Shown: positions 1 through 30,633 of the stretch, piece by piece
Layout of the letters: every line of letters begins with the position of its first letter
Numbering within the stretch: the first letter of the stretch is position 1
Notes under the pieces: generated by a model
What the model saw: only the letters and a program-made list of their open reading frames with translations
Database searches by the model: none
Told to the model about the DNA's origin: nothing
Assembly (NCBI GenBank): GCA_977020255.1
Contig: CDROCS010001054.1
Location: 496,001-560,000 of the forward strand
DNA length: 64,000 bases
DNA from: Obrimoposthia wandeli
Lineage: Eukaryota
Reading direction: 5' to 3'
Position numbers and translations under genes: made by a program

Positions 1-156
1 GATAACAACATCTACTTTAATTGTTTGATGAGTATCGAAATCATACCACGTTTTGACAATTGTAGTTCCTAATTCCTCTAATTTTAACATAACATCTAAA
101 ATACAAAATACTTTTTAAAATTTTCTTCTTCTGTTACATTAATTGGTATATCTGTA
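1..156 (-). mobile_element. Continuation of Polinton copy B pPolB, left of the copy A insertion
   Basis: The reverse complement continues from TACAGA into ATACCAATTAATGTAACAGAAGAAG (matches A ~5470-5520), then jumps to sequence matching A ~5970-6060. Confidence 0.85.
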
Positions 157-251
157 AGTAGGTGGATGTGTCCGGTCTAATCCACACCCCCTCCCCCTAC
201 TGTCCTTTAAAACCGTGCATGTCTGTGGAGTGAAATTTCGTGTAGGTGTGT
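157..251 (+). repeat. Left terminal inverted repeat of Polinton A
   Basis: ~95 bp matching the reverse complement of 15256-15351 with a few mismatches. Confidence 0.95.
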
Positions 252-568
252 AGAAAATCTTCCTACCCCCCTCCCAAACACTCAAAAAAATAATTAACTC
301 CATATAACACCCTTTAAATTTAAAAATCTCATAATGCTCCCAAAATTTTGATTAAGGTCCTGAGAGGCCGTAAAATTGGCCAAAGCGTGCCCTCCGGGCC
401 CGCGGTGGATCAACGAGTAAAAGATACAGTCAGGATTCGATAGAGAATTGGGAAGACTGTACTCCCAGGCTGAACACATAAGCCAATCGTCCGGCAACTT
501 CAGCAGTAGCAGCAAGGAGATCCAATCTCTTCGACAATTTTGAGGCGGCAATCAAATGCCCCTGGAAA

Positions 569-1917
569 TTGATCCCACTGTCTCAACCGGAGATAATACT
601 GGCACCAGACTCAGACGAGGAGCTGTTTACTGATGACGTTCCGTCGGATGGGGAGGAGGAATGGATACAGCCAAGTATCGGAGCCCCAGGAGCCAACGAG
701 TCCATGGTTGCAGAAATGGATGAAGATGAGTGGCATCTGTTCACCGACGAATGGGATGGTCTCACTCCCTCTACAACTCCGACTCCGATACCCAACAATG
801 CAGTGCCTGATCCATTCAGAAGGCCACAATCTCCGATACGTCCTGTTAGGAGAATAAAGGTGACGAATGAGGTTAGACATCATTTATTTAAAATGTTTTT
901 TACTTTTATTTTCAGAAACTGCAACTGGATTTGGCACCGTCAGTGACCACGATTGAGAGGCTGATTGAACCGCAGTACTTGGCGAGTCAATGTAGCCAGG
1001 ATGATCCCAGGAGTGAGCAGAGATACCTACCGACTCCAGCTAAATTTGAGGTATATTATTATAAATTAGTAAATTTATTTAATTATTCAAATAGGAAGCT
1101 GAATTGGTGGATGAAATTTGGGAGGAGGCAACTCGGAGACTACCCGTCGATAGGAAGCAAGCGGCGATTAAGAAACCTCGACGCCACCGTGTCAAAACCA
1201 ATACGGTCCATCGGAAGAAGGCCAAGTTGGTGAAACAGGCTAATCTGCCCGTCATCGAGGTAAATTATTTATATGTTTAAATTTTATTAATGTTTTTTTG
1301 TTGCAGGAACCAATACAATTAACTGAGGAGACATGGGCCAAAATTTCTCCTTTCCCGCAGAAAAAAAATTATTCTGAGGCGGTGATTGGCCAGCAGGAGA
1401 TTCTCCCATCTCTAGAGGACGACGGTCCAATTTTATACGAGAGGATCCCAGTCTCACCGATCGAGATTAGTCCGCCATCAAGTCAACGACGCCTGCAGGA
1501 GACATCACCGGCTTCTCCTCGTCCAACAACCAGCCAGAACTTGAAGAGGGCCTGGGATGAAGCTGGATTAGACGAATTCCTGACGGAACAGGATACACCG
1601 GCAATGCTTCCAGATTCGCGTGGGCAACAGGATGCCGTCTCACGCCAGCTTCAGCGTGAGAAAGAGGAGAAACAGAAGAAAGCTCCGCGGAAGAGGAAGG
1701 CTACTGCTTCTACGTCGGGGCCATTAACATCGGCTCCAAAACCTGAGGGAAGGACAATTGCTGTACAGCAACCGGTGAAGCCGAAAAAGAAACCAGGCCG
1801 GCCAAAGAAGAAGGAACCAGTACCGCTTTCTCCAATTATACTAAGTCGGAGAGAATACCGGATGATCCCAATGATGACTTCGTAAAAATGTTCAAAAATA
1901 TAATTTACAAAAATTAG
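569..1917 (+). pseudogene. Polinton gene 1: 4-exon acidic/Pro-rich disordered protein (~400 aa) with basic C-terminal part; start uncertain
   Basis: Phase-0 GT-AG introns at 872-915, 1051-1094 and 1260-1306 join ORFs 569, 931, an unlisted 55-codon open exon (1095-1259) and ORF 1298 in frame. A probable -1 frameshift near 1840 hides the C-terminus DDPNDDFVKMFKNIIYKN*, which is conserved in copy C. Confidence 0.8.
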
Positions 1918-2209
1918 TTTTTTGTGTTGTCTTTTTATTATTATTTATTTTAGAATTTAGTAATATTAAAATATCCTCCTTAAGTTTATTAAAATAACAA
2001 GATTAAAAATAAAGTTAACTTATTCGAATGTGATTGGATTATTAAGTAATAATTTAAATTTTTTAGGATTAAATATAAATGCAATGATTAGTTATATATT
2101 TATTAAACTTTCCTTTGATAAATATATTTTAATTGCTTGTGATTGGATTAAAAATATCTTAAATTTATATATATAGGTTCAAATTTATTAACATCTTCAT
2201 AATTAAAAA

Positions 2210-2569
2210 ATGGAATTTATTAAATTGCAAAGTTTGGTGACGAAGATCGAGGCAAACATAAGAATAAATGAGAAGAAAGGAGACTTACGAAAGAGGATCC
2301 TCAACCAGAATTTATATACTGCTGTCGCGACCGAGTGGAATCGTCGGGTGGAGATTCAGGACAGGCGGCTAGCAGAACGACGTCGGCTTGTGGAGTGAAA
2401 CAAGAAAATCGAAATGGAAAAAAGGAAGGTGGAGGAAAAAAGAAGAGAAGAGACGGAGGATGTTCGGCGAGCAGCAAGAAAGCGAATCCTCCAGATTAAA
2501 CCGGAAGAGGGTCCTTCCACAAAAAAATTAATTTTATTGATTACTTTGTCTTTATTCATTATGTTATAA
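2210..2569 (+). pseudogene. Polinton charged coiled-coil protein with one premature stop
   Basis: ORF 2210-2398 continues in frame past TGA (NKKIEMEKRKVEEKRREE...). A homologous relic lies at ~54260-54420. Confidence 0.65.
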
Positions 2570-2615
2570 AATTGTCTAAATATAAACAAATTTAAATATA
2601 AAGTTTTTTTGTAAA

Positions 2616-2838
2616 ATGGATAATAAAAATTGGAATAAATTATACATAAAATTATCTCCGGATTTAAAGGAAGATTATAAAAAAAATTACTTTTCAGAAA
2701 ATGATAGTACGGATACCATTGGATATAAAATATGTAATTTAATTTCGAAATATTTAGGTATGTTTACATTTAATATAATTAATTTTAATATTCATAGGAG
2801 AATTGACAATATATACCAATCTTAACATGAAAGACTGA
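2616..2838 (+). CDS. Small Polinton hypothetical protein, 2 exons
   Basis: Phase-1 intron at 2758-2797 (GTATGT...CATAG) gives ...KYLGELTIYTNLNMKD*. A relic (MGDKIN.NKL) lies at ~54630. Confidence 0.55.
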
Positions 2839-2924
2839 ATCCTGACTACCTCGTTATTTTAATAAATTTTTGATTAACAGTTTTTCGTTATAAACAACGG
2901 GATTTGCTACAAATTTGGGTAATT

Positions 2925-3412
2925 ATGCAGGAATATATCATAGATTTTGAGGCTTTCATTAACAAAAATGGGGATTATATTATAAAAGAATTATGTATTA
3001 TGGATGTATGCGACGTTTTCAATCCTTTGCATTTCATATTTCATATAGATATCCCATTTAAAAGTTTAGATTATAAGAAAAAATTTACTAATTTATATCT
3101 AACTAAATATTTCCATTTATTAAAATGGAAAGAAGGACATAAGGCTTTTTGTGAAATATGTATTTTCGATACTATGAAATCTAATTTTGATATTGAAAAT
3201 GGATTTTTTTATGATTTAGATGAAATGGATGGCAAAAAATATAAGACTTAAAAAAATATTTTCCTAAATTGAGGTTGAATACTTTAAATATGTCACGTGA
3301 TCATCTATTAAAAATTCCACAAAATATTTGCTGTCCATATCGTAATCATGGTGACCATTGCGCATATAAAAAATGTTTAAGTCTTTCTTATTATTACTTG
3401 ACATGTAGATAA
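2925..3412 (+). pseudogene. DEDD-like 3'-5' exonuclease-fold protein with C-terminal Cys/His cluster
   Basis: N-terminal IIDFEAF...IIKEL resembles ExoI DxE. After a -1 frameshift at ~3248 the frame continues ...ICCPYRNHGDHCAYKKC...TCR*. The same C-terminus is seen in copy C at ~55050-55250. Confidence 0.6.
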
Positions 3413-3419
3413 ACAATTA

Positions 3420-3660
3420 TTCTAATTGGAGGAATTCATTATTAAAATTTTACAATTATTTACAAATAAGCCTTTTGATTGGAGGAATAAAATTATTTTT
3501 CAACCTATAATAGATAAACAATCCTTCTCTTTAATTGGAGGAATAAAATTATTTTTTTCAACCAATAACAGATAAACAATCTTTCTCATTGGAGGAATAA
3601 ATTCAATTTTTTAATCCAATTGGAAAAGAGCATGTGTGCATAAATTTTAGTATATAAGCA
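3420..3660 (+). promoter_or_regulatory. Putative pPolB promoter: four ATTGGAGGAAT (inverted CCAAT) repeats plus TATA box
   Basis: ATTGGAGGAAT at 3425, 3478, 3534 and 3588; CCAATTGG at 3616; TTAGTATATAAG at 3647-3658; ATG at 3699. Confidence 0.65.
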
Positions 3661-3698
3661 AACACTTTCTTCATTTAAATCCCCGACAATTTGAAATA

Positions 3699-6600
3699 AT
3701 GCCTATGGTAAGAATCTATATTTATTATTTCCTTATTAATATTTATTATTTCAGATTACGTGTAACCTATTCCCTGCGTATTGTGGTGCTTCGGCACCGC
3801 ATAGAGGAGAGACCTGCATGGAGACAATGTCTGCATACTATCGGACAAAGTCTCGCGGGCTTCACTTCTTCGTCTGCCCCTTCTGCAGAACAATGGAGGA
3901 GAAGGAGTTTCGAGACTTCTTCAGTGAACATCGAGCTCACCTATCGTGTTTCACGGCCAACAATAAGAAGAGGGATATCGTCCAATTGGTGCGCGATTCG
4001 CAGGTCGCTCCAGCTCCACCTCCAATTCCAGTTGCAGTCGATCAACCCTTTTACGGTCCTGCCATTGGTCCTTCTCTCCCGGCTCCTGATTCTGCTGCTG
4101 CCCCATCCACTCAAATGTCTAACAATGAGTGGATGAACGACATCTCCGAAGAAGATTTTGAGGAGTTGGCACCAGCAACCCAATTCTCAAACAATGACTG
4201 GATGCGAAATATCAACCAGTCAGATTTCGAGATGGAGCAGCCTCAATGGAGCGACAACTCTGGTTGGAGACCATCGAGGAATCTGATTTCGTCGAGATGT
4301 CGGACGACAGCTGGATGGATTCCATCAATGAAGAGGACTTCATTCCAGCTCAACTTGGATTGCCTTCATTAGGTATTTTTTATTATTATTTTTAAATTAT
4401 ATATTTTATTTTTTATTATATATATTTTATTTTTATTTTTTATTCAGGAAATACCCTGATACAGCCGTCATCAGATAGGACAGCTATGCCTCCCCCATCT
4501 CGAGTGCCTACGTCGATGTTAGCACGCCTTAGAGGTAATAATTTTTAAAAATATATTTATTTTTTAATATATTTATTTCAGCAGCACTAACCTCTACAAC
4601 AGCCGCTTCTTCATAGACAAGGTCAGCTTCAAATGCAACCTCTACAACTGCCACTGTCTTATCAACATCTGCAGCACCTGCTACAGTAGCCCCTTCAACA
4701 TCAGCTACGATTGTCTCAACTATTAATATAAATAGTTGTCTTCCCGTTCAATTAGGGGGAGGTTCGTCAGCGACAAACGGAAGAAAGAGGCGAGGCCAAT
4801 TTCTTAATAAGGTCACACCCAAAAAACGTAGAGAAAACGGTGCTACTATAGAGTATCACCTAAATAATAAATATGTTATAGTTAAGGTGCCATTAGGAAA
4901 TGAAATTTTATTAAACGTAGGTGTAGATTCAAATATTGAAAATCTTTTAAAATCAGAAGTGACTAAATTAGGACAGGCTAAGGTTCTATTTTGCGCAACA
5001 GTGCAGTTTAAAAATGTCAATGAGGAAACTAAAACTTGGGTAATTTCACATAAAGCAACTGTTTTTTATGATAATTTTGTAACTGAAATTGGAAGAAACC
5101 TGGATGAAAAAATTGCTAATTATAGCGAGTTAAGTAGTGGATGGACTCTAGTTAGAATTCACGATGTTAGCTTTGTTCTAACAAAGTTCACTGACATGAT
5201 ATATCTTTCGGGGAGTTCATACATTCCTTCACCTAGATCTCTTCAACTTTCACGTTCCATTGTTAACGTACAAAACAGTGATAACCTTTGCTTTCTGTAT
5301 AGTGTGTTGGCCATCCTCAAAAGGGATGTAATTACTGAGCATAGAGAGCGTGTCAGTAAATATACCCCTTTTTAAATGAATTGCAGTATCATGGAATAGA
5401 TTTTCCTGTTAAATTAACTGCGATATCAAGATTTGAACATCTTAATAACTTGAGTATTAATGTATTCAAATATAATACTGATATCCCAGTTAATGTAACA
5501 GATGAAGAAATTTTTAAAAATCCTTTTGTAGATGTAATTTATAGGAGCAAAATGAGGGGACTCAGGTCAACTTAATTTTGCTCGAACAGAATAATAAATT
5601 CCATTATGCTACAATTCCCAGTTTAGATCGTCTTCTAAATTTAGATAATGGAGCCTTACCGGTTAGGATAAGGTGTAAGTGGTATCATAGATGTTTGCAT
5701 GGGTTCCGATCCGAGCTCTCTTACAGCAAACATCTGACATTATTTTCACTGAATCCTGATGACAATACGCTATATAGCATGCCTAAGGATAAGGATTTAA
5801 AATTCAGGGATTGGGCAAAATGCATACCCGTGGAATTCAGGGTGTATGCAGATTTTGAGTCAATTTTAGCATTGCACGACCAGTATGAGAGTATTCACCT
5901 ACCGGCTTCGGCAGGACTACTATTCTTAGGCCCCAATAATACCCAGTATCATAAATTTTCCGGTCCAAATTGTATTTTAGATTTTATGTTAAAATTAGAG
6001 GAATTAGAAACAACAATTGTCAAACCGTGGTATGATCTCAATGCTCATCAAGCAATGATCATGACAGGCATAGACTGGGTTAATTTTAATTCTTGTAGAT
6101 TATGTTATTTGTGTGGAACCCGGTCTAAGTTAGTCAGAGATCACGATCATGTTACGGGGCGATACTTGGGAGCGGCGTGCAACCTTTGTAACCTTGGCCG
6201 TCGTCTCCCTAAAAAACCACACATTCCCATCGTGTTTCATAACCTCAAAGGATATGATTTGCATCATATACTTAAATACGCGTTGGGTACATTAAGCTCT
6301 TGGGAAATTTCATGTATACCTCAAACTTCAGATAAATATTTATCTTTAACTGCATATACTGAATTCTGCAGTTTAAGATTCATAGATTCTCTGCAGTTTT
6401 TGAGCGGGTCTTTAAAATATTTAACGGCATCTTTAAATGCATGGCCAATTACACAGTCAGTGTTCCCAGCTTCGGTTAACGATAAGGGGATTTTTCCGTA
6501 TAAATTTGCGAAAACATTTGCAGATTTAGAAAATACAACTGAAATCCCACCCATAACTGAATTTTAGGGTGTAAGTCTTCAAGACTATAATGAGGCCCGT

Positions 6601-8128
6601 ACATTTTGGGTGAATAATTGTCGAAATCTTCTCGAATATATGCTTTATTATATAAAGTTAGACATTTATCTTTTAGCTGATGTTTTTGAGTCCTTTCGTG
6701 TAAAGTCTTGAGCAGAAGATGGGCTAGATCCCATGCATTTCTTTAGTTTACCTGATCTTTCATGGGCAACAGCAATAAAAACTCTTAAAATTAATATCGA
6801 GTTACTGCAAGATCCCGCGATGTATCAAATGTATGATTATAGTATATGCGGTGGAATGACTTTTGTCAACAAACATCATGTTGTCAAAAATCAATCCACG
6901 GAGATTCTGTACATCGATATTAATAATTTGTATGGGTGGGCGCTTACTCAACATCTACCTCATGCCAACTTTAAGTGGGTTTATGATGTGGATCAGTTGA
7001 ATAAGTTGATGACAGATTTGGTTACTATTGATACAGTTTCATCCGACGTCGGCTGAGGTGGACATAAAAATTCCTCCCAATGTGCATGATAAATTAGATG
7101 ATCTTCCAGTAGCGCCTGTTCATCAATGCCCACCTAATTCAAAGGTTAAGAAATTATTGTTAACCCATGAAGACAAGTTGAATTATGTTGTGCATTGGCG
7201 GCTTCTTCAATTCTACTTAAAGTTGGGAGCGAAAGTTACTCGAATTCATCGTGCTATAAGCTTCAGTCAAAACTTTGTGTTTAAAGACTATATTGAGAAG
7301 AATTCAAGAAAACGTAATTTGGCCACTAGCAAATTCGATCGAGATTTTTACAAGTTAAAAAGTAATAGTCTCTTTGGAAAAACTGTAGAGGACTTGCGGA
7401 AACGTATTTGTCTACGGTTTTGCAATGATAAGCGTAAACTAATAACATATACTAGCAAGTACAACTTCAAGCGTAGTTTTACAATTGCAGATGACTTGGT
7501 AGCAGTGTTATTAGGAAAACAGAGTATTTGTCTCGATCGACCGAGTTATATAGGTCAAACGGTTTTAGACATTTCTAAACTCAGAATGTATGAGCTTCAA
7601 TACATAGAATTGGAGAAATACCGACAAGAATTTAATTGTGAGATTAAAATCGCAGCTGGGGACACTGACTCTTTCTTTTTAGAATGTAGGAATGTTAGTT
7701 TAAATAATCAATTATTACCAGCAATGTTTAGGGACAACTTACTAGATACCCATAAATATCCCGCTAACCATCCTCTACACTCTATGAGTTTAAAGGACAT
7801 TATCGGGAAATTTAAGGATGAAAGCGAGGGACAGGTTTCGTATGATGATTGTATTTTCCTACGCCCTAAATGCTACAGTTTACATGCATCTAATAATACA
7901 TGTTCAATGAGAGCAAAGGGTGTGGGAAGAAACAATCTTACACATGAGGCCTACCGGAAAGTTTATGATACTGGGTGTATTGAAAGCGTTGAGCAAACTA
8001 GATTTATTTCAAGAGCCCATCAACTGTATTCCCATAAATCAACAAAACTCGCTTTGAGTAGTAATGACGACAAGCGCTTTTGGGTAGAAAAGAACGCTAG
8101 CCTGGCTTATGGACACTTCAGAATTTAA
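3699..8128 (+). pseudogene. Protein-primed family B DNA polymerase (pPolB), spliced, with N-terminal extension; disrupted
   Basis: Motifs YADFES (ExoI), FHNLKGYD (ExoII), YIDINNLYG (A), KLKSNSLFGK (B), GDTDS (C), RPKCY and KGV; HNH/endonuclease VII-like CYLC..RDHDH..CNLCN insert. Introns at 3708-3754, 4373-4447 and 4535-4581 join the upstream exons in frame with ORF 4887. Stops at 4614, 6565 and ~6708; frameshifts at ~4259, ~5372, ~5552 and ~7054. Confidence 0.95.
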
Positions 8129-8389
8129 ACGGTTTTCATTTTTTGATTTTTTTAGTTTAGTTTTTTAAAATTTTAGATCCCTATGGCACCTAGATTCTAA
8201 CTTATTTGTTATTTCAATACATTTTTAGGATGGACCTTATCTTTGCTGACATATCTCATTGTGATGTTGTGATTAATAAATGTATTAAAAAAAATTGTCT
8301 TATGTCTTTTATTATTTTACCCTTATATTTTTAGAGATTTAAAAAATAATTCAAAATAAAACATTTAAAATTTTTATTTTTATAACACA

Positions 8390-8770
8390 CTAATTGTTTT
8401 GCAACGATAACCATAAAATACATAAATGTCCACAGATTCTCGTCGCAGGATCCTGATATTGTATCTTGTTGTAAAATACTCTTCTTCGTCCTTTTTGAAT
8501 AGTTTAAACAAGTTTGTGTGGATAATACATTGCAAGTGGATCAAATACATGTATTGTCCACTCTCTAACATAAATAGCTATCCAATGTTCTCCTGGTAAA
8601 TTCGAAGTATGAGTATTGATAATGTAACCTCCAGATTGAAAAAATGAAATCATATCAATAGGATAAACTCCATTGAATTTATCACCCAGGACCTTCTCTG
8701 CTGATTCTTTTACTTGTTTTGAACTAAATAAAAATTAATAAATATAAATTTAAAATATGTCTTACTCCAT
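8390..8770 (-). pseudogene. Adenain-like cysteine protease (PRO), 2 exons, one premature stop
   Basis: After removing intron 8724-8765 it reads MDSKQVKES...INTHTSNLPGEHWIAIY...VFDP...*...QYQDPATRICGHLC, with His/Asp/Gln/Cys motifs of Polinton/adenoviral proteases. Confidence 0.88.
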
Positions 8771-8771
8771 T

Positions 8772-9825
8772 CTATAATATGACAGTTCTGTTTTTATTGA
8801 TTTGTATTTCCGAATCAAATACTCCGTAAATAAGCACCGTAGTAGGATGTGTTAAAGCTGCATTGAACTTAATTTCTAGTCGTAAATTTCCATCCTTTGG
8901 TAGTTGGCATTGGTTTATATCAAAGTCTGGTGCCAAAACGAATGTGAAGAACGGGCAGCTACTTTTAAACTCAGTGAAAGGAAGACCATTGTTTATATTT
9001 TTATCTAGTTTACCCAAATTCCGAATAATAGATTGGGTATAAGCCAAAGCATAAGCGTTACCTTCGAAATCTGTTTTATATGTTTCACGATAATCAGTAT
9101 TTCTTGAAAGTGTCACTGAACCTACATTAAGATTGTCAAATTGAGTTGCATCTGTCGTATAATTTCCTAGAAACTTTGCAGTTTTTTGAAAAGAAATTAA
9201 AATGAATTTCGGTAATCTTACATCACCAAAAATTTGATCCTTATTAAAAGCTTGTGTACCCGTACCTAAAGAATAAGATATAAGTTTAGTTTCTCTAATA
9301 GGATAACAAGCATTGTTTTTTTCCATTCCTATATTATGTGCCATTAAAACTGATTGCTCGGTTTTAACTCTTCGAACATACAATTTTGCATCCAAAATAT
9401 CAAGTCTAGGTTTTAAAACGTCCGTGCTTATCAAAGAAAAATTCCATTTATTACGTTTTAAACGAAGATGAACATTAACACCGGGAATTAAATATTTCGG
9501 TTGTTCAAAGAAATTCAATCTCAAAGACCCACACATTTCATAAGCTTTAGAACCTGCAATCCATTCTTTGCGAGTTGCAACAGTTTTATCATAACCAATG
9601 GTTGCCAAATTAGTATTTTGAGTATCAGTACTATAATTCAAAAGACTTTCAATCAAAGCTTTATGAGCATAGGAAGAATTTCCACCTTCAATTTTGACAT
9701 TATTAAGAGTAACAATGCCATCACTAAATAAAGAATTAAATAGATAATTTACAGGTGTTACATCGGCATTTTCATCTAAATTAGTACCATCCCGATTTAA
9801 TACTTTTATTTGAACATACCATTTT
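8772..9825 (-). pseudogene. Major capsid protein (double jelly-roll, PY), N-terminus deleted
   Basis: YVQIKVLNRDG...NSLFSD...YAHKALIESLLNYS...NFFEQPKYLIPGV...FVLAPD...GNLRLEIKF are typical Polinton MCP motifs. The MACAKSEL-type start seen at 30634 is absent here. Confidence 0.9.
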
Positions 9826-10440
9826 TTAATGTTTCACATTTATCCAAATATTCACTACATTCCTTCTGTATTAATTTACAGAAATTCACTTCACTATCTA
9901 TTTTATAATCTTTTGAAAACGTTTTCAGTTCCACTACAGTCTTTGGTCTCGTTTCAACTAACAACACTCTTACTACTCTACAAGGAACATTTTTAAACAT
10001 TTTAGATGAGACAATATCAGATCTCTTCATACCTACTACATGTCCACTATCAAAACCGAATTAAAGAGCTTCTTTTCCAGATTCGAATATAATTTGAATA
10101 GGTTGAACATGTTTTGATCGATTTTTAAATCTGACTTTGTTTTTTTCATATATTACTTTCACCTCTTTATCTATACAATTGTAAAAGAATTTTCCTTTAC
10201 TATCAAACCCGATCACAACTTTAGTTGTTTTTCATGATCAACTTCTTTTGTAAACGAAATATGTGAGTTTTTTCTGATAGTAATTGGAGAATAATAAAAA
10301 GAAAATTCGGTTAAAGCCGCTTCCCATTCTCCTTGGAGATTTATAGGATTTTCCCAATCGATAATAAAGCTACTAGCGTAATTATCTGGTTGAGTCTTCG
10401 GACATCCGTTACTAGGTAAAACCATATACATAGACTTCAT
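9806..10440 (-). pseudogene. Minor capsid protein/penton (PX), disrupted and C-terminally truncated
   Basis: N-terminus MVLPSN..PDN..SSF...PINLQGEWEAALTEF is typical of Polinton pentons. Its ATG overlaps the integrase stop (ATGA). Confidence 0.8.
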
Positions 10441-11463
10441 ATTATTTTAGATGCTGATATCCAAGTTGGGTCTGAATAACCATGCCATTTAACAAAGTAT
10501 TGTTTATGTTTACCTGTACCCTTAGATTTTAATATTTTTTGAATACGGAAAACGCTAAGTTTATTTGATATTACTTGTAGTTCTTGCTCGTAAATTATTA
10601 TCAGTATTATTATTGTCAGCATCTTTAATAGTATACATTATTGGATTACTCTTTTGATCAATTTTACTTATACAAAATATTTCATCGCTCCAATTCTGAT
10701 CAAAGTTTTTAATAAATGGAGTAGAGCTAATTTTCGAAATTCGAACATATTCGTTTTTCTTATATTTAGCTTTTCTAATTTTTTCTTTTTTATTCCTGTT
10801 CATCCAAATGTCCATAGAGTTTTTATTAGTAACATCAACAGGTCTCATTCCCTTGAGACCTCTATGTTCAGAGTGATTATATGCATGTATTATTTTAGGC
10901 AAAACTTGGATCCATTTTTTATTTCCTTCTTTTGTGAAATACTTTTTTATTCGATCTCTTAGAGTACGATTAAATCTTTCTACTACTGCTGCTTTGTATT
11001 GTGAAAACACAGAGTAATGATTTATATTATTTTGTTTAAATAATGATTGAACTTGCTTATTATAAAATTATTTTCCTAAATCAGTTTGCACATTTTGTGG
11101 AATGTCCTCTTTTAATATTTCTTTAATGGCTTCAAGCATAGCTATTGAAGACTTTGCTTTAACTGAAATTGAACGAGCAAACCTGCTAAATACATCAATA
11201 CATGTTAAAATATATCGATATCCCTTATTAATGGAAGAATATGGGATCATCTCTATCAAAACCATTTGCCATAAATTATTAGGACCGCTGGTTTTGTAAG
11301 CTCTAGTTGGAAACCTTCTTCTCATCGGTTTGTTCAGACTGTAGGCTAACTGGTTGCTCAGCCATTTCTGCGTTTTATTGTATTTTTGTTTTGTTCTTTT
11401 TGCTAATTTTGAAACTCCTGTGTAGCCAATTGGATCTTTTGGATTGAACCATATCTTCTCCAT
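10437..11463 (-). pseudogene. Retroviral-like (c-)integrase with C-terminal chromodomain
   Basis: IDVFSRF, QTDLGK, VERFNRTL and chromodomain QYFVKWHGY. Nonsense codon at 11068 (GAA in copy D); frameshift near 10590; the first catalytic Asp is replaced (WQMVL). Confidence 0.95.
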
Positions 11464-11549
11464 TACAACAATTTAAATTGAAAGAAAATTTAAGTTTAGT
11501 TAAAGAAGGGCTAGCACCCATATCTTTAGCTGATTTTAGAAATAATTGT

Positions 11550-11879
11550 TTATGAACGTGTCGCAGCTATAATACTACTGATAATTGAAGCAACAACTGG
11601 AATAACAGCCCCTATGAAACCACCATTCTGTTTAAGAATAATATTTCGTTTCTCTTTTTTACTTTTTACATTAGCAATATCTAGAAGAGTTTTTCTATAT
11701 TTCTTTAATATATTTTTCCGATTTCCAACTTTTACTCGACCCAAAACTATATTATACAAAACTTCCAATAAATCATCTACAACAAAGGATGGAAATGCTT
11801 TAAGAATAATCATTCTCTTATTAGAAGAGGCTTTGACTAAAGCTTTAAAATAGGGTATGCTTCTTTGTATTTTCTTCAT
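11550..11879 (-). CDS. Conserved basic Polinton protein (PW-like) ending in QNGG plus an amphipathic helix
   Basis: Intact 109 aa, basic, ending LKQNGGFIGAVIPVVASIISSIIAATRS. A near-identical intact copy lies at 19124-19453. Confidence 0.8.
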   Translation of the reverse strand: MKKIQRSIPYFKALVKASSNKRMIILKAFPSFVVDDLLEVLYNIVLGRVKVGNRKNILKKYRKTLLDIANVKSKKEKRNIILKQNGGFIGAVIPVVASIISSIIAATRS

Positions 11880-11910
11880 TTTAATAAAAAAGGTTCAATT
11901 TAAATATTGT

Positions 11911-12052
11911 TTATATTCGAAGCCATTTAAGTTTTTTTTTATTTTAAACTACAGATTTGATTAATTTATTCACTTCTTTTATTCTTAATGATTCTTTTTT
12001 TTGATTTCTTAGATTTTACTTTACGTTTTACTATCAACTTTGTAAAAGGCAT
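11911..12052 (-). pseudogene. Short very basic peptide (~46-48 aa), frameshifted
   Basis: Consensus of A and D (18950-19095): MPFTKLIVK(HK)RKVKSKKSKKRIVKKKEVNKLIKSVVRNKRKLKWLRI*. Each copy has different lesions. Confidence 0.5.
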
Positions 12053-12059
12053 TGCGAAT

Positions 12060-12707
12060 TTATTTTTTATAATTGTTCTCTATTTGTTTATAAACAGTTA
12101 CTCCCTTAGAATTAAATATGTCTGTTAAAACACGTAAATCATCTGGGCAAGCTTGTGTAAAGTCAATAAATATATACCCATGTGCTTGTTTAGCAGCATC
12201 GTGGAATGAATCAACTAGAAAGTTCTTATTTTGAGGAAATGCCTGTCTGGCCACAAAATCAACAACTGTTTGATCTCTAGGATTTTTAAATAAAACTAAG
12301 TAATGTACATTAAGATTTCTTGTTCTATGGTGACCTCCTTGGGGAAACAGATTTTGAGTGATAAATATAACTGTTACTTCACGATGTCTTGCAATCTTTG
12401 TAGATAAATTATTAAAGTCCGATTCCTTGTTAGCCTCCTCATACAAATCATCAATTATTATTACATCTTCTTTTTTCAATCTTTCACACCAATTTGCATC
12501 AAATCCTTCAATAAATTTTATTCCCTTCAACTTGCAAACTTCTGTTTTGGTTAACCCGCTTTCCCCTCCTCCGCCATGATGCCAATAAATATTTTTGAAA
12601 CTAGATTTGAAAAGAGATTCATTTTGCAACAATTTACAGACGAAATGTGTCTTTCCACTTCCACTAGGGCCAAATATTTGAAATACAGCATTATTATTTA
12701 GCTCCAT
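12060..12707 (-). CDS. A32/FtsK-HerA-like packaging ATPase
   Basis: Walker A GPSGSGKT, Walker B VIIIDD, then ARH...FITQNLF and YLVLFKNPRD; intact 215 aa. Confidence 0.95.
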   Translation of the reverse strand: MELNNNAVFQIFGPSGSGKTHFVCKLLQNESLFKSSFKNIYWHHGGGGESGLTKTEVCKLKGIKFIEGFDANWCERLKKEDVIIIDDLYEEANKESDFNNLSTKIARHREVTVIFITQNLFPQGGHHRTRNLNVHYLVLFKNPRDQTVVDFVARQAFPQNKNFLVDSFHDAAKQAHGYIFIDFTQACPDDLRVLTDIFNSKGVTVYKQIENNYKK

Positions 12708-12744
12708 TGCATATACTCTTTCATTTTTAATATTGTTTATATTA

Positions 12745-13017
12745 TCATAGAAGTTTCCTTATTGAAATGTACAATGTTAGAGCTATTGTAGATGAAATAC
12801 AAAAATTAATTAATGAATATTTGGCTATAATTTTATTTATTTGTGTACGATTTCTAAATTCTCGAATAACGTGTGATCTAACCAATATTTCAATGTTATC
12901 TCTTGTTATATCATTATTTTTTAATTCTGATAAAATTTCTTTACCCCTAATTTTTCCAGAAAATATTTCGTCGGCAAGCCGATCCACTTCATTGTCTCTA
13001 TTTATAGTATTATTCAT
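12745..13017 (-). CDS. Hypothetical 90-aa protein with hydrophobic C-terminus
   Basis: Intact ORF co-oriented between the TBP-like gene and the ATPase; C-terminus SLINFCISSTIALTLYISI. Confidence 0.5.
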   Translation of the reverse strand: MNNTINRDNEVDRLADEIFSGKIRGKEILSELKNNDITRDNIEILVRSHVIREFRNRTQINKIIAKYSLINFCISSTIALTLYISIRKLL

Positions 13018-13045
13018 TCAAAACAATAAGTTTAAACGGGTTTGT

Positions 13046-13545
13046 TTATAGAAAAGATAACAAGATGTAATAAGATATATTTTCTAAAATCAAATCAACA
13101 ATGTTTGGATAATCAAAAATTTTCAATCCCAATATCATAACTTTACCACTAGAAAATATATTTACACATAGCGGTTTAAACTTCAAATAACTGAGAGCAG
13201 GAAAAATTTCTGGTTCAAACATGCATTTTTCTTTCATTTTCTCTGCAGTTTTAAAAAGATTTATCTGTTTCCCGAGATTAGCCGAAATCGTGATTGATTG
13301 TATTGCAGTGATTTGAATTCCAAATGGTAAATTGAACCCAAGCATTGGTATTTTGCATCCCATAACACGACAATTTCCTAAAGAATTCAATATGAAAATA
13401 AAATAAAAAACTAACCTGTAGGAAAAATAACAACTGTGAAATTGTCAAACTTTTCTACATATTGTCTCGGCTTCCATTCATTGAATGGTAAGTACGAAAC
13501 ATCATCTTCTGTTCTACCTTTATAATTTATATTTACGAGTTTCAT
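13046..13545 (-). CDS. TATA-binding-protein (TBP)-like protein, 2 exons, 153 aa
   Basis: Exons 13545-13416 and 13377-13046 (38-nt phase-1 intron). Repeat 1: KLVNINYKG...VVIFPTGNCRVMGCK. Repeat 2: IQSITISANLGKQINL...FEPEIFPALSY...IFSSGKVMILGLK, matching the TBP signature YEPELFPGL...IFxSGKxVxTGAK. Confidence 0.85.
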
Positions 13546-13639
13546 TAGACTGAAATTGTATTCTGTAAAATCTTCTTTATATATGTCTGAACCTGCTTTT
13601 TATTGCACGTTTCTTGTAATTATCTTGCAAACCTATTAT

Positions 13640-13792
13640 AATTGGATGATATATTTCTTCCAATCAATTTTGATTTTAATATAGATTTAGTCCAATCAAA
13701 TTCAATGCTTTAGTTATATTAACCAATGAGATTCATGTCTTTGTTAGAAATTAGTATAAAAGAATGCGCCATTGGAGGACAAATCACAGTAA
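13640..13792. promoter_or_regulatory. Putative bidirectional promoter between the TBP-like gene and the plus-strand paralog pair
   Basis: Several CCAAT motifs at 13650-13730, TTAGTATAAAAG at 13751 and ATTGGAGGA at 13771. The TATA motif is conserved at 34752. Confidence 0.55.
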
Positions 13793-14269
13793 ATGCATTC
13801 ATATCAAAGACAATTATCAACGATGGACAATAGCCAAAGGGTATTAAGCGATGACGAAGAAATGTTTGAAGAATCGGATAAGGATATGTATGAAGAAGTG
13901 AAACAATATTTCAAATACAAAGTCAGATTCTTGAAGAAGGCTCAACTGATTGCTTTAGTAAATCCTGTGACAATTGAAAGAAGAAAGTTCAGCTACTATC
14001 TATCAGGTATTCAAAAACCTGATTTTCAATATCTTAAACAGAAAGTTGAAAAGGCAGTTCCAAATTTTACTTTCAATAAGAACAAATTTTATATCCGAGG
14101 AGCTGATGAAGCATTTCTAGATGACTATGGAAGATATGTTGATATTGATGCGTTTCCGAAAAAGAAGCAATGGACTCTAACAATTCGACTTTATGGTTAC
14201 AAGAAAGATGAAATGGGAACAAAGTTGCCTATGTGAAAAATTGAACGTGCTCATATTTCTATGTTTTAA
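13793..14269 (+). pseudogene. Hypothetical protein, paralog 1 (premature TGA at 14234)
   Basis: The related copy at ~35240 has TGG at this codon. The restored end is WTLTIRLYGY...LPMWKIERAHISMF. Confidence 0.7.
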
Positions 14270-14404
14270 CTTTTTGTGTGTAATAAATTGTAATCGGTTT
14301 TACTATGTTTCTTTCATTTAATAATCAGTTTTATTTGTATCTTATTTGTATCTTATATGTATTTTTTTATAAACATTGTTTTTAATCTGTTTCCTTATTT
14401 TAGA

Positions 14405-14818
14405 ATGGATAAGAGATGTGTAGCAAATTTTTATTATCCAGAAAGAATTTCAAAAGGAAAACTATGTAATATATTAAAGAGGCATCAAATTATACGAGTT
14501 ATGAATCCTGTGAAAATATCAAAAGTGCAGAATATATATCTCATCGAAATTTTAACAACAACTGATATTGATCAATTGAAAAATATTTTGGGATTTTACA
14601 TTCCTGATTATGTATATGAAGGAAATTGTTTCCAGCTTGAAACTGATCCCGGTCTGGATTTTAAAGATGATCTAGGATATTTGATTGCTCCAATTCTAGA
14701 TGAAGAACTATGGAATATCTCAATACGTCTCAATGGATATTTTGCTGATGACTGGAAAATGCAGCCTCTCTGGACTTTGAGTGAAGCCAATATGTTTAAT
14801 AAATATTTTGAAAAATAA
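14405..14818 (+). CDS. Hypothetical protein, paralog 2
   Basis: Intact; C-terminal WNISIRLNGY...QPLWTLSEANMF resembles paralog 1. A homolog lies at 35466-35870. Confidence 0.7.
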   Translation: MDKRCVANFYYPERISKGKLCNILKRHQIIRVMNPVKISKVQNIYLIEILTTTDIDQLKNILGFYIPDYVYEGNCFQLETDPGLDFKDDLGYLIAPILDEELWNISIRLNGYFADDWKMQPLWTLSEANMFNKYFEK

Positions 14819-15059
14819 TTTTGTCTCGTATTTTGTTTTTTACTCCTCTAAATTATATAGATCTGACCGATTTTTGTCCTCTTAATTCTAAAACTGACAT
14901 AGATATTTAACATGTAGTAATTTATTAATCTAAAATCTTTCTTAAAAATAGTAGTAATATTTGAAATCTCGTCTGCGAAAAGCCGCCGGGGTCAATATGG
15001 ATTCTCGTGGTCTTCTCTAACCACTTTTGAGATTCGTGGTAAATTTTTTTTTAAATGTG

Positions 15060-15310
15060 GTGGGTGGGGAGGGGGTACCCCCCTCCCTTCCCCCTTTGGG
15101 TGGGATGAAGACACACATACACGAAATTTCACTCCACACACATGCACGAAATTTCAACACACACACATGTTCGGTTTTAAAGGACAGTAGGGGGGGTACC
15201 CCCTTCCTTCCCCCTTTGGGTGGAATGGAGACACACATACACGAAATTTCACTCCACACACCTACACGAAATTTCACTCCACACACATGCACGGTTTTAA
15301 AGGACAGTGG
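15060..15310. repeat. Subterminal ~120-bp tandem duplication with CACGAAATTTCACTCCACACAC sub-repeats and GGGGGTACCCCC palindromes
   Basis: Two units each contain GGGGTACCCC...CCCCTTTGGGTGG...CACGAAATTTCA...GGTTTTAAAGGACAGT. Confidence 0.85.
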
Positions 15311-15351
15311 AGGGAGGGGGGTGTGGATTAGACCGGACACTTCCACCTACT
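15256..15351 (-). repeat. Right terminal inverted repeat of Polinton A
   Basis: Reverse complement of 157-251, followed by TSD TCTGTA. Confidence 0.95.
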
Positions 15352-15357
15352 TCTGTA

Positions 15358-18214
15358 TTATATTTGAATACATTTATACTCAAGTTATTCATGTGTTCAA
15401 ATCTTGATATCGCAATTAATTTAACAGGAAAATCTATTCGATGATACTGCGATTCATTAAAAAGGTTATATTTACTGACACGCTCTCTGTGCTCAGTAAT
15501 TATACTTATCTTGAGGATGGTCAACACGCTATACAGAAAGCAAAGGTTATCACTATTTTGCATGTTAACAATATAACTTGAGAGTTGAAGATATCTAGAT
15601 CAAGAAATGTATAAACTCTTTGAAAGATAAATCATATCCGTGAACTTTGTTAAAACAAAGCTAACATCGTGAATTCTAACTAGAATTCCACTAGTTAACT
15701 CGCTTTAATTAGCACCTTTTTCAAATAAATTTCTTTCAATCTCAGTTACAAAGCTATTGTAGAAAACAGTAGCTTTATGTAAAATTAACCAAGTTTTAGT
15801 TTTCTCATTGACATTTTTAAACTGCACTGTTGCACAAAACTGCACTTTAGCCTGACCTAATTTCGTCACTTCTGATTTTAAAAGATTCTCAATATTTGAA
15901 TTTACACCTACGTTCAATAAAATTTCATTTCCCATGGGAACCTTAACTATAACGTATTTGTTATTTAGGTGATACTCAATAGTAGCACCATTTTCCTACG
16001 TTTTTTGGTGGTGCTTTATTAGACATTGGCATCTTCTCTTTCTACCTACCATCGCCGACAAACCTATCTCTAATTGAACAGGAAATCCACTAGTTTTATT
16101 GTTTAGGAGTCCTGCTGCTGTTGATGTTGTCAGTGATGTTGTTGAAGTTGAGGCTACAATGGCTAATGTAGACGATGCTGATGAGGATGCTGCGCCGGAT
16201 GTTGAAGCTACAGCGGCTGTGGATGCTTTGGCTGAAGACATGGTTAGGGTCTCTATGGATGCTGATACAGAAGATACTGGTGCTGCCAGCAACGATGATG
16301 TTATTGAAGACGCAGCTGTTTAGAAAATAAATATATTATATAATTTAAAGTGAGTTACTTCTTAAGTCAGTCAACCTTGACCTGGACGCTACTATCGTTG
16401 ATCGAGGCATTTGAGTTGATGACGCTGAACCTCGGGATTCGGCTACTCTGGAGGCCGATGATGTAGATAATGCAACTGCTGAACAAAATATATTAATTAA
16501 ATTATATTTATTTTAAACATTGCCTTTGAAGCCTGCAAACATTGACGCAGGCACTCGCACTGAAGGGGACATCGCAGCCGTAGTAGGTGAAGTTGTTGAA
16601 GAAATTCCTAATGAAAATATAAAATAATAAATAATTTATATTACTTATTTAATTCTAATTTTTTAAAAAATCATAACGAAGAATTACCTGTAAAACCTAA
16701 TGAAGTCTATCCAACTGTAGCTTGTTGGGGAAAAAAGTCTTCTTCGTTGACGGCATCCATTTAGCTGTCATCGTCAACTAAAAATCGGATTAGTCGATTC
16801 TGTCTAATCAGCTGTTGTCAATCTATTGCGTTGAAGTCTGCTCCATCTCTAAACCAGACTGGGTGATTTGATCCATTCCGTCGTTTTTCGATAGTTGAGT
16901 TGTTGGTGTAGTGGTTTCCTTCTCAAATGAGCTTGGCAGATGACCTCCATTCGCTCATTGTTGGTCAGTTGAGTGGATGATTCAGAAGTAGGCATGGTAA
17001 CCAGGGAAGCGACAGACTGGACTATTTCAGGATCAAAAGCAGGCTTGAAGCTAACTGCTAGTTCTGGAACTGGAACAAAATCATTCGAAGGATTGCGCAC
17101 CAACTGGATAAATCTATTCTTCTTGTTGTTTGGCCCCGTTTAGCGAAGAAAACCAAATACTCCTTGTCCTTTACCGTTCGGTAGAATAGGCATACGTAAA
17201 CATTTCACGAAGTCATCATCAGGATCATACTTATCGATATCCCCCGACTTACTGGGCGAGGTTTATGAGATACCGGCAGATTCTTCTTCGTTCGGTCAGG
17301 TTTCTTTTTCGGCTGCACTACTACCGATTTCTGTGCAGCATTTGTCGTTCCAGAATGCTTTGGGAGGATTGGTCTCAACATTTGGGAGGCATTGCAGTCG
17401 AAGTAGATGCCCCGGCTGATGAAATTGACAGCTGAGGTATTGAAGCTACGGTTTTCTTCTTCTTTTGTGTTTGCTTCTTTTTGTCCTTCTCACGCTCCAG
17501 CTGCCGTGCTCCTGCATTCTGTTGTCGATTGAAAACTGGATACATGGCTGTTGGTTGCGGGTGCAGGGTCTCTAGTTCCGCCATTAATTTACCCAAATTA
17601 GCATCGAGTCAGGCCCTCTTCAAATTCTGACTTGTAGATGTCACAAGAAGAAGAGATGTTTCCATATCCTTCTAAGCTCGCGCACAGGTTTTGACTGAGA
17701 CTGTATGACTGCTGAATAACCAGTGATGGTGGCGACGGAGTACAATTCCCCAGCAATGTCTCCTACAGATGACGCTGGCTTGGATGAGGAGTTATCTCAA
17801 TAGGAGCAACTGTGATCTTCGTGTATATGATCGGCTCATCTTCTAACGGCGAAGCAAGATTATCCTGCTGTAAAATCAACACCTAGGCAGAAGCGAGCAG
17901 GCTGGTGGTCATCTTCCTCCTCTTCTTATTGTGCACTACCGTCTGCTACTTACACATTGGTGCGATATAATTAGCCTCTCCCATTAGCTTCTCCAGTTAC
18001 TGATTTGGGTCATGCATTAGAAAAAACACACATATATATATATATTTTAATAAATTACCTCTATAACTGATAAGTTTGCATGTTTCACCAATTTCACTTT
18101 TTTGCTTCGGACTGTCTTCGTCGTCACCTTGAGTCTCATTAACCTCTGCACCACTGCATGTTTCTGGTCAGTCGGTATTATAGGAGTAGCCTCTTCCAGA
18201 ACCTTCTCCGCGTG
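15358..18214 (-). mobile_element. Polinton copy B, decayed, reverse orientation: pPolB 5' exons and gene 1 3' exons
   Basis: Homologous to A 4000-5470 and A 1100-1800. The intervening genes are deleted, and the copy is cut at 18214 by copy D. Confidence 0.88.
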
Positions 18215-18384
18215 AGTAAGTGGATATGTTCGGTCCAATCCACCCCTTCCCCTCCCTCGGGGGCTACCACTGTCCTTTAAACCCGTGTATGTGTGTGGAG
18301 TGAAATATTTGATAAAAAGCAACAAAAAGGGGGGCCTCCCACCAAAAAAAACGCCCCTTTGGGCGCCCCGGCTGCACCCCTCTC

Positions 18385-18935
18385 ATTTGAGCAAAATAAA
18401 TATCTTTTCAATTCTAGTTTCAAAAATATTTATTGGCATCATGATGGAGGAGGAGAAAGTGGATTAACCAAAACAGAGGTTTGCAAGTTGAAGGGAATAA
18501 AATTTATTGAAGGATTTGATGCAAATTGGTGTGAAAGATTGAAAAAAGAAGATGTAATAATAATTGATGATTTGTATGAGGAGGCTAACAAGGAATCGGA
18601 CTTTAATAATTTATCTACAAAGATTGCAAGACATCGTGAAGTAATAGTTATATTTATCACTCAAAATCTTTTTCACCAAGGAGGTCATCATAGAACAAGA
18701 AATATTAAAGTACATTACTTAGTTTTATTTAAAAATCTTAAAGATCAAACAGTTGTAGATTTCATAGCCAGACAGGCATTTCCACGAAATAAGAACTTTC
18801 TAGAACTGCTAAACAAGCACATAGGTATATATTTATTGACTTTACACAAGCGTACACAGATGATTTACGTGTTTTAACAGACATATTTAATTCTAAGTGA
18901 GTAACTGTTTATAAACAAATAGAGAACAATTATAA
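18385..18935 (+). pseudogene. Packaging ATPase of copy D, Walker A deleted
   Basis: VIIIDD and FITQNLF are present; the N-terminus is replaced by subterminal DNA. Confidence 0.9.
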
Positions 18936-19123
18936 AAACCAAATTTGCAATGCCTTTTAAAAGTTGATAGTGAAACATAAACGTAAAGTAAAATCTAAGA
19001 AATGAAAAAAAAGAATCGTTAAGAAAAAAGAAGTGAATAAATTAATCAAATCTGTAGTTAGAAATAAAAGAAAACTTAAATGGCTTCGAATATAAACAAT
19101 ATTCAAAGTGAACTTTTTTTAAA

Positions 19124-19453
19124 ATGAAGAAAATACAAAGTAGCATACCCTATTTTAAAGCTTTAGTCAAAGCCTCTTCTAATAAGAGAATGATTATTCT
19201 TAAAGCATTTCCATCCTTTGTTGTAGATGATTTATTGGAAGTTTTGTATAATATAGTTTTGGGTCGAGTAAAAGTTGGAAATCGGAAAAATATATTAAAG
19301 AAATATAGAAAAACTCTTCTAGATATTGCTAATGTAAAAAGTAAAAAAGAGAAACGAAATATTATTCTTAAACAGAATGGTGGTTTCATAGGGGCTGTTA
19401 TTCCAGTTGTTGCTTCAATTATCAGTAGTATTATAGCTGCGACACGTTCATAA
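19124..19453 (+). CDS. PW-like basic protein of copy D
   Basis: One amino-acid difference from A 11550-11879. Confidence 0.8.
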   Translation: MKKIQSSIPYFKALVKASSNKRMIILKAFPSFVVDDLLEVLYNIVLGRVKVGNRKNILKKYRKTLLDIANVKSKKEKRNIILKQNGGFIGAVIPVVASIISSIIAATRS

Positions 19454-19539
19454 ACAATTATTTCTAAAATCAGCTAAAGATATGGGTGCTAGCCCTTCTT
19501 TACCTAAACTTAAATTTTCTTTCTATTCAAATTGTTGTA

Positions 19540-30230: not shown

Positions 30231-30249
30231 ACAATGTTAATCGTTAATA

Positions 30250-30630: not shown

Positions 30631-30633
30631 GAA

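Follow-up and report, generated by a model that had tools for sequence, protein, structure and literature searches.

A mini-TBP encoded by Polintons of Obrimoposthia wandeli is a candidate late-promoter factor

We analysed a 64,000-nucleotide stretch of Obrimoposthia wandeli DNA (contig CDROCS010001054.1, positions 496,001 to 560,000), hereafter the window, and found that it carries a Polinton/Maverick element (157..15351, no strand assigned) encoding a miniature TATA-binding protein (mini-TBP). Judging from its residues and predicted fold, and from two classes of promoter in the elements that carry it, the mini-TBP is probably a late-gene promoter factor with a rebuilt DNA-binding face, early genes being driven by the host.

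Results

A mini-TBP gene is shared by several Polinton families

The mini-TBP gene lies on the minus strand (13046..13545), where exon 1 (13545-13416), a 38-nt GT..AG intron (13415-13378) and exon 2 (13377-13046) form an open frame of 153 codons. Exon 2 matched the Pfam TBP family (PF00352; E 9.7e-12, 45 bits, cut-off 22.9) and a solved archaeal TBP (E 1.7e-13), bearing out the TBP-like gene proposed in an initial annotation of this DNA. Ten database proteins of 78-190 amino acids (aa) matched exon 2 at 46-57% identity, and the full-length database relatives were intronless and ran on across the junction into exon-1-like sequence. Among the 120 top matches listed in a profile search, lengths ranged from 131 to 224 aa (most ~150), and the mini-TBP profile recovered 55 representatives at E <=1e-30 among 50%-identity clusters. 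No mini-TBP was found in the viral_contigs set.

When the genome was searched with exon 2 (1.35 Gb, 6912 contigs), all of the scored candidates (150/150) were 96-100% identical, out of 32,390 first-look candidates; with first-look candidates in the tens of thousands, Polintons seem to be extremely abundant in this genome. Twenty elements fetched around TBP matches were grouped into families W (the window type), A, B, C and D, with X and a partial E added later, and a TBP was present in all six families studied in depth (W, A, B, C, D, X) as well as in the seventh, partial one. At 38 metagenomic loci, the neighbours of TBP included an ATPase (12), an integrase (7), an exonuclease-like open reading frame (ORF; 7), pX (6), the family of ORF 13793 (6) and a major capsid protein (MCP; 4); most of these contigs span 1-5 kb, so missed neighbours are expected.

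Between families, synonymous sites of the mini-TBP were mostly saturated (nonsynonymous divergence, dN, 0.18-0.61), and the sole pair far from saturation (A-E) gave a ratio of nonsynonymous to synonymous divergence (dN/dS) of 0.21. In a 62-row tree, 23 sampled mini-TBPs and one further row formed a clade (support 100/99) nested in a wider set of 126-189-aa TBP-like proteins, and a long, fully supported branch split the set containing the mini-TBPs from cellular TBPs. TBP-like proteins of 160-190 aa (P0214, P0220, P0232, P0236, P0237, P0243, P0246, P0256, P0261, P0275, P0279, P0280, P0285, P0288) keep a segment of helix-H2 length, yet carry the rebuilt DNA-face signature (xRxMG, QT, VNxF), and are possible ancestors of the mini form. 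The introns of the TBP genes vary with the family: W has one of 38 nt, C an in-frame one of ~45 nt and X also has one, while A, B and E have none. The site is apparently about the same throughout, which would mean intron gain or loss within a mobile element.

The predicted saddle keeps TFIIB-contact residues and has an altered DNA face

An intronless homolog, P0002, was folded in place of the window protein. Its model (pLDDT 89.7) has a complete ten-strand saddle, an N-lobe helix H1 of only four residues and no long helix H2. A fold search over 48,161 chains returned TBPs as the top five matches (Z 12.1-10.3, ~150 residues aligned; the best with Z 12.1, a root-mean-square deviation (rmsd) of 2.9 and 150 aligned), followed by a non-TBP at Z 6.6. 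With a profile score above the cut-off and a two-lobed saddle in the P0002 model, the protein falls within the TBP fold family (PF00352).

We counted residues in 159 homologs using yeast numbering, with contact positions taken from Table 1 of PMC12529657. Among the DNA-kinking Phe residues, F116 (100%), F190 (100%) and F207 (99%) are kept and F99 is lost, and P191 is present in 91%. The DNA face is changed by V122R (99%), T124M (100%), N159S (99%), V161T (88%), V203C (99%) and L205N (99%), and T215L occurs in 76%. Under the register of the structural alignment (model 1-152 to yeast 65-240), N69 is kept and V71 is replaced by Asn; MAFFT placed this N-x-N at yeast 73/75, and 69/71 was preferred from the structural range and lobe symmetry, making these the less sure positions. 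The mini-TBP does not have the residue set of a canonical TATA-reading TBP (four Phe, N69/N159, V71/V161, T124/T215, L205). Table 1 of PMC12529657 gives polar residues at V122, T124, V161 and L205 in the TBP mimic ORF24 of KSHV, Kaposi's sarcoma-associated herpesvirus. At the I194 position family W has Ser in 30/30 loci, unlike 98% of the mini-TBP family.

In the accessible text of PMC7221094, TFIIB contacts TBP at two C-lobe glutamates, and TFIIA, TAF1, Brf1 and Mot1 contact a basic patch on N-lobe H2 that binds acidic-aromatic segments. Both glutamates, E186 and E188, are present in 100% of the 159 homologs, as read from sequence alone. The H2 basic patch is missing (positions 134-141 are gapped in 96-98%), so acidic-aromatic partners could not dock on the mini-TBP in the usual way. 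P191 marks the C-lobe as reader of the first T, according to the part of PMC12529657 consulted. The 3' half, in which the motif described below departs from TATAWAWR, would then fall to the N-lobe. From the model and these residues we infer that the mini-TBP remains able to bend DNA and to accept TFIIB, and that it reads another sequence.

Canonical N-lobes are encoded by two TBP genes of the host, which also has TRF-like paralogs, and a TFIIB protein (P0291) matched a host exon at 88%. Both host TBP genes stand head to head, ~1.2 kb apart (L193; G000:C238:872053-873742), and several Brf-like paralogs are present in the genome.

TATAAAC(A/G) precedes packaging and capsid genes

A motif of the form (T/C)ATAAAC(A/G) was found 29-53 nt upstream of the ATG of ATPase (15/16), pX (13/15), MCP (9/10) and exonuclease-like (9/9) genes, and within 70 nt of none of the scorable TBP starts (0/25). 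The rows scored were 17 ATPase (1 unscorable), 15 pX, 10 MCP, 9 exonuclease-like and 30 TBP (5 unscorable); families W and X are each represented by two copies, and a W-type neighbour supplies one of the MCP rows. The C-initial variant accounts for one ATPase case and one pX case. As background, the motif preceded 154 of 8577 ATGs (1.8%; 0.4% when shuffled), and its spacing equals that of canonical TATA before TBP genes.

Nine TATAAAC(A/G) sites were found in the window element, none of them in its terminal repeats (0/9), and seven stand 33-40 nt before the start of a same-strand ORF. On the plus strand, TATAAACA motifs lie at 2581..2588 (35 nt before ATG 2616 of a small ORF), 2889..2896 (36 nt before ATG 2925) and 14368..14375 (37 nt before the gene for a second protein resembling single-stranded DNA-binding proteins, SSB-like gene 2). 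On the minus strand, they lie at 11908..11915 (36 nt before the pX ATG), 12085..12092 (within the ATPase 3' end, 40 nt before the ATG at 12052 of a small basic ORF), 12734..12741 (34 nt before the ATPase ATG, and present in 26/30 family-W loci) and 13043..13050 (across the stop codon of TBP and 33 nt ahead of ATG 13017). One of the remaining two is the mirror half of a palindrome and the other (8990-8997) lies within the MCP gene, where it was rejected as a promoter, since 5/7 lineages printed do not conserve it at this codon.

The motif before MCP sits in pV coding DNA and is written NNT-ATA-AAC in 8/8 lineages (the frame was checked computationally for 3 and read by eye for the other five). 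AAC accounts for only 13-26% of Asn codons in the seven lineages where these were counted, so that the fixed spelling points to selection at the DNA level. Families B, D and W also have a site 96-126 nt before pV. In family X, the motif was seen first and the TBP sought afterwards, and a TBP match was obtained in 6/8 fetched copies. Separately, a leucine-rich-repeat protein with a signal-like N-terminus stands behind a TATAAACA site in some of the metagenomic mini-TBP elements (L049, L052, L054).

The motif is absent from a TBP-less family

TATAAAC(A/G) was found 0 times in 45,200 bp (6 copies) of a TBP-less family from the same host, compared with 46 times in 34,200 bp from the six TBP-bearing families, where seven single-base variants of the motif occurred 2-13 times each and were not similarly enriched. 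The control family is distantly related and Polinton-like (rve integrase, E 7.6e-10; Pox_A32, E 3.9e-7; Adeno_PX, E 2.2e-5), and no TBP was found in the stretches fetched. One of its loci (G000:C3352:55600-68300; L153, L154) carries an integrase, an A32 ATPase, a pX-like gene, a gene for protein-primed DNA polymerase B (pPolB) and A-rich leaders. Motif and protein are thus linked by a correlation whose control is weak.

Canonical TATA boxes precede mini-TBP, pPolB and an SSB-like gene

The initial annotation had singled out one promoter design, TTAGTATA(T/A)AAG with CCAAT, at two loci. Exact matches do stand at 3647 and 13751, with CCAAT/ATTGG boxes clustered upstream of both; the other exact matches in the window, at 34752 and 52350, fall in or beside other fragments of the same element family. 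Allowing one mismatch gave 8 matches against 2.8 expected, a count that 1/100 shuffles reached. Promoter 1 (3408..3698, plus strand) holds three ~56-nt repeats with ATTGG/CCAAT boxes and TTAGTATATAAG at 3647-3658, 48 nt from TATA to the pPolB ATG at 3699. Promoter 2 (13640..13792, bidirectional, no strand assigned) has CCAAT/ATTGG boxes and TTAGTATAAAAG at 13751-13762, a box found in 25/30 W loci. The TTAGTATAWAAG box therefore precedes pPolB and ORF 13793, which is SSB-like. The promoter-1 repeats (window 3408-3600) pair GATAAACAAT, which we take to be forkhead- or Sox-like, with ATTGGAGGA three times.

A canonical TATATAAAG (13575..13583, minus strand) lies 38 nt before the TBP ATG, at the same site in another W copy and in 24/30 W loci overall, and the region 13575-13792 is bidirectional. 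Across families, a canonical TATA was found within 70 nt of the TBP start in 14/25 scorable cases, with a spacing of 33-47 nt in 13/14. Other W copies have a third TATA+CCAAT promoter before gene 1. Family D and metagenomic elements show this design too; in families A and B, the interval from TBP to pPolB holds a bidirectional TATA and lacks CCAAT. TATA with CCAAT is an ordinary Pol II promoter design and needs no element-encoded TBP. The shared box is thus real at both loci, and on its sequence it is a canonical TATA, likely read by the host.

Acidic-Trp proteins are largely confined to family W

The initial annotation had further proposed two spliced, acidic-Trp products, from gene 1 and the N-terminal part of pPolB. 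The gene 1 remnant (482..1882, plus strand; exons ..-871, 916-1050, 1095-1259, 1307-~1880) encodes an acidic-Trp N-terminal part and a basic, Pro-rich C-terminal part; in the window its promoter and first codons are gone in a ~0.9-kb loss, and a stop stands at 479-481. It had no Pfam match, and its best Atlas score (0.76) was uninformative. The pPolB gene (3699..8128, plus strand; exons 3699-3707, 3755-4372, 4448-4534, 4582-; Pfam DNA_pol_B_2, E 1e-8) has several frameshifts and stops in the window, a Cys/His finger-like N-terminus and acidic-Trp repeats at about 4115-4350. Both gene 1 and the N-terminal exon of pPolB are predicted to be spliced, with AT-rich introns of 44-75 nt. Within family W, dN/dS was about 0.2-0.4 for gene 1 exon 1 (15 pairs) and about 0.15-0.4 for pPolB exon 2 (10 pairs), and both are under purifying selection. 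Predicted splicing, acidic-Trp composition and coding-type evolution of the two products were thus upheld, and their disorder is a judgement on composition; the start of gene 1 is not at 569, and pPolB is interrupted.

Among 20 elements, no gene-1 homolog turned up outside W-type sequence, although proteins of low complexity that evolve fast can escape detection. The pPolB N-terminal region has 3-4 acidic-Trp windows in W, a single one in C (an acidic linker), one that is out of frame in D and none in A, B or E, and a Cys/His finger-like segment with a GG-type motif, perhaps a protease site, was common to all pPolB N-termini seen. The family C N-terminus (L108:1948-4287) has a long Ser-His repeat and a stretch that we take to be ubiquitin-like, whose terminal LRGG immediately precedes the Cys/His finger. 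From their composition, the acidic-Trp repeats may be activation domains or, on a polymerase precursor, equally binders of RPA or of the element's SSBs, and the proteins are likely family-W accessories outside the core switch. The three-part module put forward in the initial annotation (TBP, acidic activators, shared box) does not survive a co-occurrence check across families: TBP is in all those examined, gene 1 was found only in W and the repeats mostly in W.

ORF 13793, or SSB-like gene 1 (13793..14236, plus strand; a stop near the 3' end), has a predicted T7 gp2.5-type oligonucleotide-binding (OB) fold. Its model (pLDDT 90.7) matched T7 gp2.5 at Z 7.8 (rmsd 3.3, 110 aligned), and its top three fold matches were all gp2.5-type SSBs (Z 7.8/7.5/7.2, under the safe level of 8), followed by CP312R of African swine fever virus at Z 6.6 and then Z 5.1. 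An Atlas search with ORF 13793 gave leads below 0.9 only, which disagreed with the OB fold. SSB-like gene 2 (14405..14818, plus strand) aligned to it as a paralog at 23% identity and is predicted to share this fold.

The window copy is a decayed Polinton nested in an older one

The element has terminal inverted repeats (left, 157..254, plus strand, beginning AGTAGG; right, 15253..15351, minus strand) whose arms are 94% identical, a 6-bp target-site duplication (TSD), TCTGTA (151-156 and 15352-15357), and Pfam matches for pPolB and an rve integrase, both broken in this copy; these are the marks of a Polinton/Maverick. Its insertion site lies within pPolB of an older family-W copy, whose flanks are window 1-156 and 15352-20818, with further fragments at 28190-36018 and 52350-56063. 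Decay of the window copy shows in the interruption of its genes for pPolB, integrase and capsid proteins and, compared with another copy, in ~970 nt gone at 9818/9825 in addition to the loss at the start of gene 1.

On the minus strand, the MCP gene (8772..9818; 55% to the L058 MCP, no Pfam match, a label we assume from sequence likeness) has lost its 5' end, and the ~970-nt deletion there also takes out a pV-like gene with its TATAAACA site. It is followed by a broken gene (9825..10450; no Pfam match), which we take to be minor capsid protein-like, the broken rve integrase (10450..11463), the pX-like core protein gene (11550..11879; Adeno_PX, E 0.019), the A32-like packaging ATPase (12060..12707; Pox_A32, E 2e-4) and a 90-aa ORF (12745..13017). 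A homolog of the C5 protease was also matched (Peptidase_C5, E 5e-6). On the plus strand, a broken conserved ORF (2925..3251) is 36-41% identical to metagenomic homologs adjoining TBP genes; lacking a Pfam match, it is presumed exonuclease-like from an IDFEAF motif. In most families and metagenomic loci, the start of the integrase gene is overlapped by a tiny ORF, MGA(N/S)PSL...C (window 11463-11520, minus strand), which presumably resembles a myristoylated peptide. Two other transposase-type regions of the window we take, from their translations, to be a piggyBac-like transposase (45198-46616) and a hAT/GTF2IRD2-like transposase remnant (62495-63811).

Discussion

If the mini-TBP is a late-gene factor, canonical TATA boxes would serve host TBP and CCAAT-binding factors in starting the mini-TBP gene, pPolB, SSB-like gene 1 and gene 1. 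The mini-TBP would next bind to TATAAAC(A/G) and bring TFIIB and Pol II of the host to the genes for packaging and capsid, while the loss of helix H2 would let it escape control by TFIIA, TAF1, Mot1 and Brf1. The idea in the initial annotation that the element runs its own early/late programme on host Pol II is supported at its core, by way of the TATAAACA motif and not of the box it had flagged. In its fullest form, the proposal is that an animal Polinton lineage has a two-step cascade built on one ~150-aa factor, the smallest known two-lobed TBP, specific for TATAAAC(A/G), using TFIIB and blind to TFIIA, TAF1, Mot1 and Brf1, and we give that form an even chance of being correct. In family W, the acidic-Trp proteins could bind the H2 patch of host TBP, which is absent from the mini-TBP, and so sharpen the switch.

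Several observations weigh against a late-factor role. The motif lies within 70 nt of the start in only 4/14 scorable integrase, 3/9 pV and 4/10 minor capsid genes (protease starts were mostly unscorable), and 11/25 TBP genes have no canonical TATA within that distance. It also precedes SSB-like gene 2 and the exonuclease-like gene, and the family C pPolB carries a hybrid TATATAAACA box, so that "late" is itself inferred. Two of the eight family-X copies have the motif and no TBP match within the stretch fetched, and the lineages in the motif counts are not independent samples. The control is one distantly related family whose copies are interrelated, whose MCP was not identified and whose TBP status was checked on fetched stretches only; TBP-less close relatives were not found in viral_contigs (ATPase and MCP alignments) or in genome_contigs. 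Both lobes are remodelled, so the N-lobe change that matches TATA position 7 is only suggestive. Finally, ATAAACA also fits what we take to be the forkhead consensus.

This last point belongs to an alternative that we consider rather unlikely: host TBP reads TATAAACA as a weaker version of TATA, or a forkhead factor reads it, and the mini-TBP has a different role, such as competition for host TFIIB or the repression of host and early promoters. The motif is one position off the TATA consensus, promoter 1 has its GATAAACAAT repeats, the host owns canonical TBPs and TRF-like paralogs, and invariant TFIIB glutamates would suit a decoy as well as an activator. A host reader is at odds, however, with the fixed strand of the motif and its TATA-like spacing, with its absence from the same-host TBP-less family and from 25/25 TBP genes, and with a mini-TBP that keeps three Phe beside a new, invariant polar DNA face; the TATAAACG variants, moreover, do not fit forkhead.

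We find it improbable that the mini-TBP acts on the TTAGTATAWAAG+CCAAT box with gene 1 and the pPolB acidic repeats as its activators, as the initial annotation envisaged. In family W all three parts do exist and evolve under purifying selection, the box precedes pPolB and SSB-like gene 1, with a similar TATA+CCAAT before gene 1 in other copies, and acidic-aromatic segments are typical of activation domains and TBP partners in the accessible text of PMC7221094. Set against this are the restriction of gene 1 and the repeats to W, the deletion of helix H2, the canonical nature of the box, the want of CCAAT between TBP and pPolB in A and B, and a DNA face that differs from that of a TATA-reading TBP at six fixed positions. 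Very doubtful, too, is a structural or replicative mini-TBP that bends the termini or condenses the genome while another element-encoded protein reads TATAAACA: the gene adjoins SSB-like and ATPase genes and several small conserved ORFs have no assignment, but the invariant TFIIB-contact glutamates argue for transcription, the window's sites avoid the terminal repeats, and ORF clustering gave no other unassigned ORF common to most metagenomic loci.

A late-factor mini-TBP would be expected to prefer TATAAAC(A/G) among TATAAACA, TATAAACG, TATAAAAG and TATATAAG. A virion-gene motif that diverged families keep in their DNA, and that is tied to an element-encoded TBP, makes it testable whether animal Polintons run a timed, virus-like gene programme. 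For TBP biology the protein offers an experiment of nature as well: a minimal saddle, probably of altered DNA specificity, in which the TFIIB site is kept and the regulatory surface dropped. If the proposal is true, it would be a third way of making late promoters on host Pol II virus-specific, and the mini-TBP and its promoter would form a naturally orthogonal pair, usable as an orthogonal core-promoter system should the mini-TBP work as proposed.

Comparison with known systems

As described in the accessible parts of PMC8502044 and PMC8097293, Polintons, Mavericks and adintoviruses share with the window element the 6-bp TSD, terminal inverted repeats, pPolB and rve integrase, and probably also the A32 ATPase, C5 protease and capsid-like genes. 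The window's family has in addition spliceosomal-type introns, a TBP and the promoter classes, the latter two not described in the portions of the Polinton texts searched. In PMC8502044 and the preprint 10.1101/697771, "TBP" appears in the legend of a MELD-element map (Fig. 5; the figure itself was not visible), and the mini-TBP family may already be drawn in that figure of PMC8502044. The main texts of PMC11131425, 10.64898/2026.06.19.733378, PMC11071308, 10.1101/2023.08.22.554363 and PMC8097293 contained neither "TBP" nor "TATA" where searched, and their supplements may bear on this; VLTF3 is reported in some coral polintoviruses (main text of PMC11131425) and sporadic TBP genes in mirusvirus-like elements of an alga (accessible text of PMC10675990). 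Our literature search, whose scope stopped short of subscription journals and Repbase, found no paper on a Polinton TBP or a TATAAAC(A/G) motif. Viral TBP-type late factors are known; one in Polintons is apparently undescribed.

Compared with cellular TBPs (PF00352; yeast, human and archaeal), the mini-TBP shares the saddle fold, F116/F190/F207, P191 and E186/E188; it differs in being ~30 residues shorter and borne by a mobile element, with a vestigial H1, stirrup/F99 and H2 lost, and six DNA-face changes. The TBP-like proteins of large dsDNA viruses likewise do not conserve the N-lobe regulatory signature, but they mostly come with their own TFIIB and conserve the TFIIB glutamate at ~40%, whereas E186 and E188 are invariant here (accessible text of PMC7221094). 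No TFIIB-like ORF was seen in mini-TBP elements in a search that was not exhaustive.

There is also a likeness to the TBP mimics of beta- and gammaherpesviruses, such as KSHV ORF24, which, in the parts of PMC12529657 consulted, combine a virus-encoded TBP fold and a polar DNA face with host Pol II, and whose late promoters have a short TATA variant (TATTWAA there) set against canonical early promoters. As with ORF24, UL87 and BcRF1, a non-canonical TATA variant stands before virion genes and not early ones in the mini-TBP elements, though not before every virion gene. The architecture of the factor differs: ORF24 is a 752-aa protein of a six-member complex that has no TFIIB glutamates and binds Pol II directly (PMC12529657, same parts), whereas the mini-TBP, 153 aa in the window and without the large multidomain build, is a lone protein of ~150 aa that keeps E186 and E188.

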